DNA of 45,560 nucleotides from Escherichia phage ev243, in the sequence record NC_049955.1; one strand, 5' to 3'. This document shows positions 23,801 through 29,800 of this stretch, one piece after another. Position 1 is the stretch's first letter; every line of letters begins with the position of its first letter. Position numbers: made by a program.

Positions 23801-26800
23801 TTGTATTTCTGCTTCAGAATTTCCTGGGCAGTATATATTTTCTATTTTTTGTGGAGTGATCAGGTAATGTACAACTGCTTTATCTACACATAAATTAACT
23901 CCGGTGAGAGCTAATGTATGCCCATCACCATTTATTGTTAGTAACGGGCTGGAAAATTTCTCTGCCATCTTACGGGCATTAATCCAGGGCGTTGTTGGGT
24001 CGTATTTGTGTGCTACAAACAGTAAACCAGAGGGCAGAACAGTATTTTTCAGGCGAGTTTTGTTCAGGTCGCTATGTATTGGCCATAATTCACAAAAATC
24101 AGGTGAATCGGAACGTCCATTGTCAAAGTTAATAGCCGGGAAGGCATTCGCAAGAGCGTCTTTTCGGGATTTTCGCTCTTCTGGTGTTAATTGCTCATCC
24201 CCCTGATCTACACAGAGGATTACCCCCGAAGCATCGCTTGACTCTTCTGAGGCTATCGGAGCACTGAGCGCAGTTTCAATTTCATTACTGACAATCCCCT
24301 GAGAGAACTGGCGTATGGCAGTTGCAAGGGTTGGCCATGATGAACGCCATAGCAGAAGGTCTGTTGTTAATGATATGAGTTCATCTGAAGATATATTTTC
24401 TCCCTTACTGTCTAATAAAGGTTTGTGATGTAATTTTGATAATAGCTCATGGAACTGAGTTATTGCCTTATCTCTGTCTGAAGAAAGCGGGCAACTTTTT
24501 GTACGCGCACACCAGGATGCAAAGCGATCAAACGTTTCCTGATAACTCTGTGCCTGTTTGAGTTGCCATGTGAAGTTGTCCTCCAGGTCATCGATATCGA
24601 CGACTCCATCAAGAACGATAGATCTTACGTTGTAGGGAAAACGTTCTGCATATAAGGCTGCAATTTGAGTTCCATACGAATACGCCACGGCTGTCAGTTG
24701 TTTATCCCCCAAGGCTTGCCTAATACGATCAATATCGTATACAGCCTCGTTAGAGCCGATATGGCGAATGACTTCGGCTCCGGTATTATGGATACAGGCA
24801 TTAATTTTATTTAATACTTGTTGCTTTTCGGTTATGTTTTCCTGAGTCTCTGTATCTGATTGCCGGCAGTTTATTGTCGGAGTGGACTGTCCGACGCCTC
24901 GAGGATCAAATCCAATAATATCCCATGACTCACGAAGATTTGTGACTGGCCAGTCAAAGTTAATATAAGGATTTATGCCTGGTAACCCGGGACCACCACT
25001 TATTATCAGGATACTTCCTTTATGCTTGCTTTTTGCCGGCAATTTTGTCAACGCTAGTTTGACTTGTGATTTTTTTTCATAAGAAGCATCTCCGCCTGTG
25101 TCTGTATATTTTAATGGAACAGACAAATAACCACATAGTAAGTCAGGAGACGGTTTTTCCTCACCAAACCAGTGGTTGAATTGACTGGCCATACAGGATT
25201 GCCACTGTATCTGCTGGGCAGATACGGTTACTGGTAGAAGTAACGTTAAAACAACTTTGAAATGAGTGATTATTTTTCGCATTGTGTCTCTGAATATCGG
25301 AATAAAGATAAGATTTGAATATATTGAGGTCTTGTGTTGCGGTAAGAGATTACACGTTATGACATAGGTTAAATGCTTACAAAATTAGTGGATATTGCCT
25401 ACTTGTAACTGTAAACAAATTCCCCGGGGTTATACAATACCACCGGGGAGAAAATCTGGTTAACTTCGTTAAAAGGTGTACTTAAGACCAGCAGTAGTGA
25501 TGAAGTTATAGTTTTCTATGCCTGCACCATTTTTGCTGTAGTCTGAAGTGTTATCATTGTGATCATAAAGTGAAGTATTACCTTTTTTATTCGTAACCCG
25601 ATTCCATGCGCCTTCAACATAAACTTTTGCGTTAGGTGTTACGTAATAACCTGCATTGACTGCAACAGAATAGTAATTTTGGTCTTTGACTTTACTGCGA
25701 TAAGTGATTCTTTTTCCTGGGTCATAGTGCTCATCGTTATCAGATGCTTCCACCCAGCCGCTGTATTTAAATGTGCCACCTAGCTCAAAATCTTCATAAC
25801 GATAACTTCCAGTCAAGCCAATGTAGGGCATTTTAAAACGTTGTTTGTAGCCGATTGCTCTTTCTCCATTCGGGAAGGAGCCGATATCATCTCTGAATCC
25901 CTCCTCAGAACTGTAGATATAGGAACCACCTCTGGCTGTAAAGCTATAACGGCTTTCCTGATATCCGGCCATGAGTCCCAGGCGGTAATTGGGTTCGTTG
26001 AGGAGCCAGCCTTTGATATTCAGATCAAATTCGTTGGCATAATTGAGTTGTGTATCAGGGTGCCTACTTTCATCTGTCCAGGTTCCGGGGTTACTGGAAT
26101 CCATCCAGTCCTGATCGACCATATTGCCACCTCGGCTGCCGAGAGTAGTCCAGCCCGCAGCCCCAATAGATATCTGGGGCATCAAATCCCAATTAATTGC
26201 ACCTTTAATAATTGCAGCGTTATTGAATTTCCAGTCGAGTTGACTGACTTTTCGGCCTCCTTCTTCAGCTAGATAAACGCGCTCTTTTGTTTTTCCGCTC
26301 AGAGTTCCAAGACTAATGTCCGCATTTATGTTGTCAGGAGTAAACGATATAGTCTCGGTAGAAGCAAAAGAGCTGATCGCAATAGGGGTTGTCAGGACTA
26401 TTCCCAGAAGTTTCGCCCGCATAAAAGTTCTCCATTCAATCGTTTTAATGATTGAATATGTATTTTTTATATCTAACTTAATGAGTCAATTACATATTGC
26501 TCCACTGTTTATATTTTGTTTAGTATTGAATGATTATCACAATGTGCTATCTGTTTTTGGTTTAATTATCTGTTATTGTTTTATGTTGCGGTTTTACTGT
26601 GTGGTTTTTTATGCTTTTGTGGTGTTTTTATCTATTTAAGCGCCATGCCTTTAGAGGCATATAAGCGAAAATAGCATGAGGTTTATCCTCAATTGCTATG
26701 TTTTTTGGTACAAAAAAGAGGGACAAAACTGAGACACATAAGGCCTCACAATGGCTTGCAAGGCTTTACATGTTTTGAGGTAGTGGGACGTGTGAGCGCA

Positions 26801-29800
26801 GAGATGGCGCGGTAAGTTGTTGACTTAAAATGTCGTTCTAGGAACTTCTAAGTCGTGGGCCGCAGGTTCGAATCCTGCAGGGCGCGCCATTACAATTCAA
26901 TCAGTTACGCCTTCTTTATATCCTCCATAATTCCAGAGTGGGACATATTTGGGACATTATCACCAAAAATGTCGTCTATTTTCCTCGCATGCTCTGTCAA
27001 ATGATTAGGCGCAAGGTGAGCATACCTACGAACCATTTCTATGGACTCCCATCCGCCCATTTCCTGAAGCACTGATAATGGGACGCCTGACTGAATCAGC
27101 CAGCTTGCCCAGGTGTGTCTGAGGTCATGGAAACGGAAATCTTCAATTCCTGCACGACGACAAGCTGATAGCCATGATGTCTTGCTGTCGATGCGCATCT
27201 TCCTGACCGCAGGCGTTGATGTTCCATCTGCTCGCTTAGCCGCCTTGGTATGTACAAACACCCATTTGTGATGCTTGCCTATTTGATCACGCAACACTTT
27301 ACAGGCGGTATCGTTCAGCGCCACACCAATGGCGCGGTTTGATTTGCTCTCTTCTGGATTCACCCAGGCAACTCGTCGCTGCATGTCGATTTGTTGCCAT
27401 TCCAGATTTATGATGTTCGACTTTCTCAGACCAGTTGCCAGCGCAAACTTGACGACAGATTTCAGTGGTTCGGGGCACTCATCAATAAGGCGTTTTGCTT
27501 CCTCCTTTTCCAGCCATCTGACTCGCTTGTTTCTGACCGCTGGTATCTTGATGACAGGCGCTTTTTCCAGCCACTTCCAGTCGCGTTCTGCAGCACGGAG
27601 AATGGCCTTTATCATGGCAAGATGCTTTGCCTTTGTCTGAGTTGATACTGGCTTTGGTTCATAAACAGGCGGTTCTTTACCTTTCCTGATGGCGGCCTGA
27701 ACTTTCTGTTTCCATATTTCTTTCGTCTTTCTGTTATGCATTCTGCTTACAGCAGAGTAAATCTTTGCCTCCGAGATATCTTTAAGCCTTATACCCTCAA
27801 AATGTTCAAGCCAGAACTCAATCCGGCTTTTATCTGAATCGAGAGATTTTTTATCAGCTTTTTCCTCAAGCCATCTTAGGCAGGCCTCTTCAAAAGTGAC
27901 ATCAGGTAAATCCCCTAGCTTTTCTACTCGCCAGAGTTCTGCTTTTCGCTTGTCGTGCAACTCCTGAGCTTGCCGCTTGTCCTTTGTGCCAAGAGATTCC
28001 TTAATTCGTTTCCCGCCCGGGAGCGAATACGAGGCATACCATATTTCATTTCTGCGGAAGAGTGACATTTTCTTTCCTCTGTTATGCCATCACCCGCGCT
28101 CACCTGGACAGTATGCAGCGGAGACTGAAGCGCCGCAATGCAGGCTTGCCGTGTTGTGAGGTAAGGAGATTTTGGCTTGGTTGGATCTTTACGTGTTGCC
28201 TGTAGGCGGCCTGTTCGTATCCAGTTGGTGGCGGTTGGTCTGGATATCTTAAGAAACTGACAGGCCTCATCGAGTGTGAGGCTGTATGATTCCATGGTTA
28301 CCTCTGCTTTTTGAACGCATGTCACGTAACTTCTTAATGTGTTCTGCCGTTTCGATCTCTTCTGCTATCCGATCTGCATCAGCTTTATTCACAGGTTCAA
28401 AGTCATGATTAAAGCGGAACATGCTGGCGATACATGTTCTGCCTTTTCGGATGTAGTGAACTTTGTTGTGGGTAGAACGCAGGATTTTGCAGGGAGTGCC
28501 GTGGTGGTCGACGTACCAGGTGTTAGGAAAAATGATTCTGAACATTTTTACACCTCAGTTGGACGATGTTGAAATTTGCTGCTTTGAGGCCATCACAGTC
28601 CCCATTGTTTGTTCTTAAGTTCGATCTCCTCCTGGCAACTTGCACAAGTCCGACAACCCTGAACAGCCAGGCGTCTTCGCTCATCTATCGGATCGCCACA
28701 CTCACAACAATGAGTTGCGGATACAGTCTGGTAGTTCAGACGACGCATTTTTATTGCTGTATTGCGCTGTAATTCTTCGATTTCTGATGCCGAATCAATG
28801 ATGTCTGCCATCTTCCATTAATCCCTGAATTGTTGGTTAATACGCTTGAGGATGAATGCGAACAATAAAAAAGGAGCCTGTAGCTCCCTGATGATTTTGC
28901 TTTTCATGTTCACCGTTCCTTAAAGACGCCGTTTAACATGCCGATCGCCAGGCTTAAATGAGTCGGTGTGAATCCCATCAGCGTTACCGTTTCGCGGTGC
29001 TTCTTCAGTACGCTACGGCAAATGTCATCGACGTTTTTATCCGGAAACTGCTGTCTGGCTTTTTTGATTTCAGAATTAGCCTGACGGGCAATGCTGCGAA
29101 GGGCGTTTTCCTGCTGAGGTGTCATTGAACAAGTCCCATGTCGGCAAGCATAAGCACACAGAATATGAAGCCCGCTGCCAGAAAAATGCATTCCGTGGTT
29201 GTCATACCTGGTCTCTCTCATCTGCTTCTGCTTTCGCCACCATCATTTCCAGCTTTTGTGAAAGGGATGCGGCTAACGTATGAAATTCTTCGTCTGTTTC
29301 TACTGGTATTGGCACAAACCTGACTCCAATTTGAGCGAGGCTATGTGCCATCTCGATACTCGTTCTTAACTCAACGGGAGATGCTTTGTGCATACAGCTC
29401 CCCGTTTATTATTTATCTCCTCAGCCAGCCGCTGTGCTTTCAGGGGATTTCGGATAACAGAAAGGCCGGGAAATACCCAGCCTCGCTTCGTAACGGAGTA
29501 GACGAAAGTGATCGTGCCTACGCGGATATTATCGTGAGGATGTTTCATCGCCATTGCTCCCCAAATACAAAACCAATTTCAGCCAGTGCCTCGTCCATTT
29601 TTTCGATGAACTCCGGCACCATCTCGTCAAAACTCGCTATATACTTTTCATTCCGCTCAATCACGACATAATGCAGGCCTTCACGCTTCATACGCGGGTC
29701 ATAGTTGGCAAAGTACCAGGCATCTTTTCGCGTCACCCACATGCTGTACTGCACCTGGGCCATGTAAGCCGATTTTATTGCCTCGAAACCACCGAGCCGG

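Follow-up and report, generated by a model that had tools for sequence, protein, structure and literature searches.

An attachment site in Escherichia phage ev243 that very probably directs integration into the argU tRNA gene

The DNA considered here is the 45,560-nucleotide sequence of Escherichia phage ev243 (NC_049955.1), referred to in its full length as the window, and the locus of interest near its middle consists of part of a bacterial tRNA gene followed by the genes for an integrase (int) and an excisionase (xis). The 45-mer at positions 26845-26889 of the plus strand, cttctaagtcgtgggccgcaggttcgaatcctgcagggcgcgcca, is an exact match to nucleotides 33-77 of argU, the gene for tRNA-Arg(UCU), in both Escherichia coli K-12 MG1655 and strain 63-2. 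The matching segment opens with the first base of the anticodon loop (CTTCTAA), includes the T arm and the 3' acceptor strand, and closes with the CCA. Chance cannot account for an exact match of 45 nucleotides. The sole long open reading frame adjoining the 45-mer, 26905-28068 on the minus strand, is int, and the gap between the CCA and the int stop codon amounts to 15 nucleotides (26890-26904). The corresponding gap in K-12 is likewise 15 nucleotides, with argU ending at 564799 and intD lying at 564815. The principal features are as follows.

26845-26889, plus strand: the 3' 45 nucleotides of argU, from the anticodon loop to the CCA (exact match to argU of K-12 and 63-2)
26845-26891, plus strand: common core, 47 nucleotides that are the same in the phage site attP, the bacterial site attB, and the junctions attL and attR (four-way comparison; empty sites match exactly 47 nucleotides at 100%)
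26905-28068, minus strand: int, a tyrosine integrase of 387 amino acid residues (Pfam Phage_integrase, PHROG integrase families, near-identity to K-12 IntD)
27924-28295, minus strand: xis, an excisionase of 123 residues (PHROG 2907 excisionase, E = 5.9e-46; Pfam HTH_17)

A match of Int to Pfam PF00589 (E = 5.5e-47) over residues 184-355 identifies the protein as a tyrosine recombinase, and its motif blocks TGLR (212), SKSNR (241), HDLRH (314), and RRYAH (347) should carry the catalytic residues. When compared with IntD of K-12, 385 of the 387 residues and 1161 of the 1164 nucleotides are identical. The xis gene overlaps the start of int by 145 nucleotides. The first ∼86 residues of Xis are nearly identical to those of the annotated Xis of phage SfI, in which the start of the gene is offset from that of int by the same 227 nucleotides. 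The xis gene is intact in the window, and its K-12 equivalent, xisD, is a pseudogene. The original prediction, which had placed the 3' 45 nucleotides of argU at a distance of 15 nucleotides from the stop codon of a DLP12-type integrase, was correct in each of these respects.

Four sites were aligned on the 45-mer, namely attP from the window, attB from the empty fimZ-argU-envY site of strain 63-2, attL from the argU-intD junction of K-12, and attR from its ompT-envY junction. The left arm of attP is identical to that of K-12 attR, on the ompT side, and its right arm corresponds to that of K-12 attL, on the int side, with one mismatch in the 60 nucleotides shown. The left arm of the empty attB is, in turn, identical to that of K-12 attL, and its right arm corresponds to that of K-12 attR, again with one mismatch in the 60 nucleotides shown. 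As both right arms start with tt, the identity between attP and attB reaches two nucleotides past the 45-mer, and the common block is thus 47 nucleotides in length, running from C32, the first base of the loop, to two nucleotides beyond the CCA. This position corresponds to the anticodon-loop sublocation of tRNA-gene integration, in a classification that is reportedly that of Williams in 2002. In K-12, argU occupies 564723-564799 (plus strand) and intD 564815-565978 (minus strand), and DLP12 is annotated from 564755, which is nucleotide 33 of argU, to 586056, just before the orphan repeat. At the opposite end of the element, the ompT gene extends to 585633, with envY beyond it. A 47-bp attR repeat has been reported for DLP12 (PMC6379469).

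The four-way exchange of arms is the signature of conservative site-specific recombination between attP and argU. That argU is the target, and that argU is followed by intD in the same orientation in K-12, had both been claimed beforehand, and both claims are borne out: the left arm and core recur at K-12 attR, the core and right arm recur at attL, and the empty site provides both bacterial arms. Indeed, attL and attR were looked for in lysogens, and both were found as reciprocal recombinants in natural lysogens of near-identical elements. The GenBank record of PhiR68_2 starts with the bacterial sequence CAACGAC followed by the core and ends on the last base of the P arm (...TCTAGGAA); it was evidently cut from a lysogen.

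On the basis of these comparisons, the site is, in all likelihood, the attP at which a temperate, lambda-like coliphage recombines with argU by means of a DLP12/P22-type heterobivalent tyrosine integrase. An imprecise excision event could also have left a piece of host DNA, without any role in integration, within a phage genome. Aberrant excision is able to capture flanking DNA, and beyond this general point nothing specific speaks for it. The position and extent of the fragment, however, are identical in the independent phages 2G7b, Turner, and Kati, a host-matched variant is found at the same place in Salmonella phages, and the fragment corresponds exactly to the duplicated segment found at the ends of DLP12 and of thousands of prophages. 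No other host sequence lies alongside it. The imprecise-excision explanation, the probability of which we would place near zero, is refuted by the reciprocal exchange of arms.

The window starts with GGGCGGCGACC and ends with ...CGACAGGTTACG, termini that we take to be of the lambda-type cohesive-end (cos) sequence. Collinearity with Escherichia phage 2G7b (Nesevirus nv2G7b, LR595866) starts at base 1 and holds for the first 25 kb, with 95.5% identity over 93% of this left portion, and the genes for terminase, portal, head, and tail proteins come first. These features mark the window as a lambda-like phage genome that runs from cos to cos, and the site near its middle is consequently a true attP and not a junction in a chromosome; the claim that attP carries the tRNA 3' end is upheld by the exact 45-nucleotide argU match within that genome. 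A hybrid P-core-P' junction between tandem prophages, in a window derived from a bacterial chromosome, was considered, given that such a junction is present in the chromosome of strain E28. This alternative, which is very improbable, was rejected on account of the cos ends. Moreover, the window is without bacterial flanking sequence and is collinear with the 2G7b record from its first base, with the terminase, head, and tail genes leading. A tandem junction would, in any case, carry the same sequence as attP.

The ompT spacer, att region, and int of the window are 99.9% identical to those of 2G7b and 99.3-99.6% identical to those of Turner and Kati, and the identity across ompT spacer, attP, and int amounts to 99.3-99.9% when the PhiR series is counted along with 2G7b, Turner, and Kati. 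Genome order from cos is also the same in 2G7b. Given that the left 25 kb of 2G7b agree with the window at just 95.5% over 93%, the window represents a distinct isolate or a mosaic. None of the 2G7b, Turner, Kati, and PhiR records has an annotated attP, and a literature search on phage 2G7b or the PhiR/ECOR phages returned nothing relevant.

In the GenBank records of Turner (PP925837) and Kati, attP is instead labeled as a tRNA. The feature, an 84-nucleotide "tRNA-Pro" (1886-1969 of the retrieved Turner locus), is identical in sequence to window positions 26806-26889 and is made up of the argU fragment and 39 nucleotides of the P arm. Taken at face value, the annotation would make this segment a genuine but unusual phage tRNA or tRNA-like gene. 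For an acceptor-like stem, such a gene would need ATGGCGCG (26804-26811) to pair with CGCGCCAT (26883-26890), and these positions do constitute a perfect 8-bp inverted repeat (I15). Five further perfect inverted repeats of eight nucleotides, however, occur within the same 678 nucleotides, and the Salmonella phages BIS08P22 and SEN22 have ATGACGCG as the 5' strand, with which the pairing is lost without a compensating change. The Rfam tRNA model (RF00005) gives a weak match at 24.8 bits (E = 0.0095), which falls below the gathering score of 29, lacks the acceptor stem, and contains a 29-nucleotide insertion. No tRNA was detected by ARAGORN across the whole window or in Turner, and argU was recovered by the same program in the K-12 and 63-2 control loci. 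The fold of the 84 nucleotides is no better than those of shuffled sequences (z = -1.15; 25 of 200 shuffles were as good) and is not a cloverleaf. No complete cloverleaf above the RF00005 gathering threshold is thus present at attP, as had been foreseen in the original prediction. A complete or unusual tRNA at this position, which has almost no chance of being real, is largely refuted by ARAGORN, Rfam, the fold z-score, and the uncompensated loss of pairing. Since attP holds the 3' half of a tRNA, the "tRNA-Pro" of Turner and Kati is an annotation artefact.

With the site taken as attP, its probable anatomy, including candidate binding sites for Int and for integration host factor (IHF), can be set out as follows.

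26717-26960: probable full attP, ∼245 bp, comprising the P arm, core, and P' arm (taken to span the outermost conserved TGGGAC-type repeats)
26717-26740, plus strand: candidate tandem arm-type Int sites of the distal P arm, AGAGGGACAAAAC and ACTGAGACACATA, with 11-nucleotide spacing (direct-repeat family D3 pairs with the P' pair)
26734-26773, minus strand: a 40-nucleotide hairpin within the P arm, in the 3' untranslated region of int (dominant hairpin of a 221-nucleotide minus-strand fold, z = -3.75)
26782-26794, plus strand: candidate arm-type Int site P2, AGTGGGACGTGTG (TGGGAC motif)
26813-26825, minus strand: IHF-like site on the P-arm side, AGTCAACAACTTA, with one mismatch to WATCAANNNNTTR (consensus scan)
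26840-26844, plus strand: putative left core-type Int site C, AGGAA; its attB counterpart, ACGAC, is the anticodon-stem 5' strand (placed according to where the identity block lies)
26845-26851, plus strand: putative 7-bp overlap region, CTTCTAA, corresponding to the anticodon loop of argU (where the attP/attB identity has its left edge)
26895-26907, plus strand: IHF-like site on the P' side, ATTCAATCAGTTA, with one mismatch (consensus scan; overlaps the int stop codon)
26937-26960, plus strand: candidate tandem arm-type Int sites P'1 and P'2, AGTGGGACATATTTGGGACATTAT (TGGGAC-type repeats inside int codons 370-378, DNVPNMSHS)

An extent of 26760-28068 had been given earlier for the site and the integrase. 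The functional attP probably begins near 26717, upstream of that start, and the identity with attB is two nucleotides longer than the 45 that had been stated.

The TGGGAC-type motif is present in five copies on one strand, of which three lie in the P arm and two, arranged in tandem, in the P' arm. Of the eight plus-strand copies of TGGGAC in the 45.5-kb window, three fall within 177 nucleotides around the core (Poisson P about 5e-6). These repeats are conserved in the attP sites of SfI and SfII, which have thrW cores, and of the Salmonella phages BIS08P22 and SEN22, which are of the argU type, and thus accompany two different cores. More specifically, the distal P-arm pair is kept in SfI/SfII, BIS08P22, and SEN22, the block TGGGACGTGTGAGCGCAG at P2 is kept in both argU-type and thrW-type attP sites, and the sequence TGGGACA-ATTTGGGAC of the P' pair is invariant in all four aligned attP sites. 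From this pattern we infer that the five repeats are arm-type Int sites. Note that VPN(M/L)S is retained in the otherwise divergent Int tail of SfI; the presence of the P' repeats within these int codons may be the reason.

Two IHF-like sites flank the core, as compared with 0.29 expected per 351 nucleotides. The sequence TTGTTGACTTAAAA at the P-arm site is kept in the Salmonella argU-type attP sites, and at the aligned P' position SfI has AATCAATAAGTTA, an exact match to the consensus. At the left core-type site, TTCTAGGAA is kept in BIS08P22 and SEN22. Established knowledge of the tyrosine integrases that target tRNA genes points to the anticodon loop as the place of the crossover. In attB the anticodon stem forms a dyad, ACGAC/GTCGT, and the left side of attP reads AGGAA. 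Because the identity block begins at the anticodon loop and the attB stem supplies a dyad, strand exchange most likely occurs within the 7-bp loop at 26845-26851.

Nothing in the analysis contradicts this explanation, the limits of which are the following. Repetition and conservation are the only grounds on which the arm sites were identified, because no published P22 arm-type or Xis site sequences fit for comparison were found, and the candidate site at 26728-26740 overlaps the hairpin, which could instead explain its conservation. Each of the IHF-like sites contains one mismatch, and the crossover position was deduced solely from where the identity block starts.

A plausible course of integration can be formulated from these features. 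The N-terminal domain of Int would bind the TGGGAC-type sites on both arms, aided by IHF, which would bend the DNA at the two flanking sites, and Int would also bind the core sites around the anticodon loop and exchange strands with argU inside the 7-bp loop. At the resulting attL, the bacterial 5' half of the tRNA gene would be joined to the phage 3' half, thereby leaving argU intact and followed by int. The attR junction would contain, in order, ompT, the P arm, the orphan 45-nucleotide tRNA fragment, and envY. Excision would be directed by Xis, whose gene lies immediately upstream of int and overlaps it. What is observed is that the sequences are identical, that the arms have been exchanged reciprocally in natural lysogens, that int and xis are intact, and that the repeats are conserved; the choice of bound repeats, the part played by IHF, and the precise point of crossover are what we infer.

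A survey of 5426 complete E. coli genomes revealed argU followed by this int in 2743 and the ompT-side P arm joined to the core in 2715. Genomes free of the element match the 47-nucleotide core only. About half of the complete E. coli genomes thus carry the element at argU. A second int variant, ∼92% identical, lies beside argU in many E. coli genomes (NZ_CP142953.1, for example), and 995 records fall in the 90-95% identity band for int. In the genomes with the variant int, one place in the genome was matched, and no P arm was detected at the search sensitivity used.

It had also been suggested that the phage would compete with resident DLP12-like elements for argU. This is not supported. Because integration rebuilds a complete argU at attL, such that the anticodon stem-loop of attB survives, a resident element leaves the target in place, and strain E28 (NZ_CM143889.1) has two tandem copies. 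Its layout is fimZ-argU-int-prophage-ompT-(P-core-P')-int-prophage-ompT-core-envY, with three copies of the core and two int genes that are 44,960 bp apart. Both copies of the ∼45-kb prophage at argU have identical protein accessions, and the array is located by positions 20423, 24906, and 8985 of three retrieved loci. The tandem array may be an assembly artefact, and interference between elements through immunity or homologous recombination is possible. In E. coli A16 (NZ_CP028758.1), the anticodon loop of the argU at attL (269-346 of the retrieved locus) is lengthened to eight nucleotides by an additional C (CTTCCTAA), and the gene is annotated as tRNA-Gly. The neighboring fimZ is marked as frameshifted, and the extra C is therefore likely to be an assembly indel.

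Between the tail-fiber region and attP, at 23798-26422 on the minus strand, the window carries two cargo genes. One encodes a secreted-looking α/β hydrolase of 494 residues (Abhydrolase_1 and a TAP-like domain), and its slot holds appY in K-12 and PhiR68_2. The other encodes an omptin of 317 residues, the equivalent of ompT. The spacer from the start of ompT to the first arm repeat (26423-26716) is AT-rich, contains the short direct repeats D1, D2, and D4 as well as a promoter-like site on the ompT strand (26489-26462), and is 97.9% identical to that of K-12; it is probably the regulatory region of ompT. The layout of the cargo supports a phage-cargo origin of the K-12 ompT, placed beside attP.

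An attP at argU together with a DLP12-type int is a correct but already known and very common arrangement, and GenBank already contains phages whose attP and int are virtually the same. What the window offers is a free, intact phage carrying the unrecombined att site, the halves of which bound DLP12 in K-12, and it lends support to the view that ompT of K-12 arrived as phage cargo beside attP. Of modest practical value are the attP coordinates, now fixed for this group of phages, the exposure of the GenBank "tRNA-Pro" in two phages as an artefact, and the finding that a site occupied in about half of the complete E. coli genomes is re-usable in tandem.

Among the closest known systems is DLP12 of K-12. 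Its location at argU and the orphan argU 3' repeat next to ompT were described by Lindsey, Mullin and Walker in 1989, as cited in PMC6379469 and PMC2629481. Its Int is 99.5% identical to that of the window, and the core, P' arm, and 15-nucleotide gap are identical. The P arm and ompT-proximal spacer are 97.9% identical in K-12-like genomes, and ompT adjoins the P arm in both. Whereas DLP12 is a decayed, integrated remnant, with pseudogenes for xisD and exoD and an inserted IS3, the window represents an intact phage whose xis is likewise intact and whose attP has not recombined. The DLP12 region contains appY where the window has the α/β hydrolase.

In the Salmonella phages epsilon34, BIS08P22, and SEN22, the argU 3' end likewise lies in attP just downstream of int. 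For epsilon34, integration at argU was proposed from a 43-bp match to argU located immediately downstream of int and from the DLP12 integrase being the closest relative (PMC2629481); its Int is about 80% identical (PMC2629481). BIS08P22 and SEN22 share the core-proximal P arm and the arm repeats with the window, and their int genes show 77-79% nucleotide identity. Their cores differ from that of the window at two positions (GCCGT, GGGTC), differences that presumably track the Salmonella argU. These three are P22-like podoviruses, whereas the window phage is a lambda-like siphovirus.

The module shared by P22, SfI, SfII, SfV, and SfX, which is specific for thrW, shows the same architecture, with an Int of 387 residues, an xis overlapping int, and the same arm repeats. 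The core again runs from the anticodon loop to the CCA, 14-15 nucleotides from the int stop codon (in SfI, a 46-nucleotide thrW core lies 14 nucleotides from int), but it is the 3' end of a tRNA-Thr rather than a tRNA-Arg gene. All four SfI sites, attP, attB, attL, and attR, have been verified by PCR (PMC3636060). The same paper states that the attP core of SfI and P22 is identical to that of DLP12 (PMC3636060). Contrary to that statement, the DLP12-type core in the sequences analyzed here is the 3' end of argU, not thrW, and the two cores share only tRNA-generic positions. Identities between the window and SfI are as follows.

Distal P arm (26726-26802): 96%
Core and core-proximal P arm: 57%
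int DNA: 68%
Int protein overall: 73%
Int N-terminal region: 78%
Int putative core-binding region: 64%, the lowest
Int catalytic region: 75%
Non-overlapping part of xis (28069-28295): 96%

The divergence from SfI is confined to one contiguous cassette, 26803-28068, between near-identical flanks. Comprising the core-proximal P arm, core, P' arm, and int, it looks like a swappable targeting unit.

The hairpin at 26734-26773 lies in the conserved flank. It is followed by a U-rich sequence and was flagged as terminator-like; terminator-like sites in the region are not enriched (5 versus 2.2 ± 1.4 in shuffles). In SfI the hairpin is unchanged, and BIS08P22 retains it with one change, from U-A to C-G. 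The corresponding position in SEN22 is occupied by a different hairpin. Identification of the window hairpin as a possible tI/sib-like element or as a protein-binding dyad is speculative, and its conservation could equally reflect the binding of Xis or Int. Given its place in the P arm, the hairpin is parted from int upon integration, in the manner of lambda sib, and ends up at the far end of the prophage. The suggestion that it is a lambda-sib-like retroregulator or terminator, set in a near-invariant block that brackets a swappable cassette of int and core specificity, is a doubtful one. If it were true, phages could retarget between tRNA genes by a single recombination, the cassette being placed between conserved flanks.

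Finally, phage lambda itself also employs a heterobivalent tyrosine integrase, and its attP of ∼240 bp has repeats on both arms and IHF sites, for which the IHF-like sites found here are candidate counterparts, with xis positioned upstream of int and overlapping it. The sib/tI hairpin of lambda lies beyond attP in the int 3' region, where the window also has a hairpin. Lambda differs, however, in targeting the gal-bio attB, an intergenic site with a 15-bp core, instead of a tRNA gene, and in the sequence of its arm sites.

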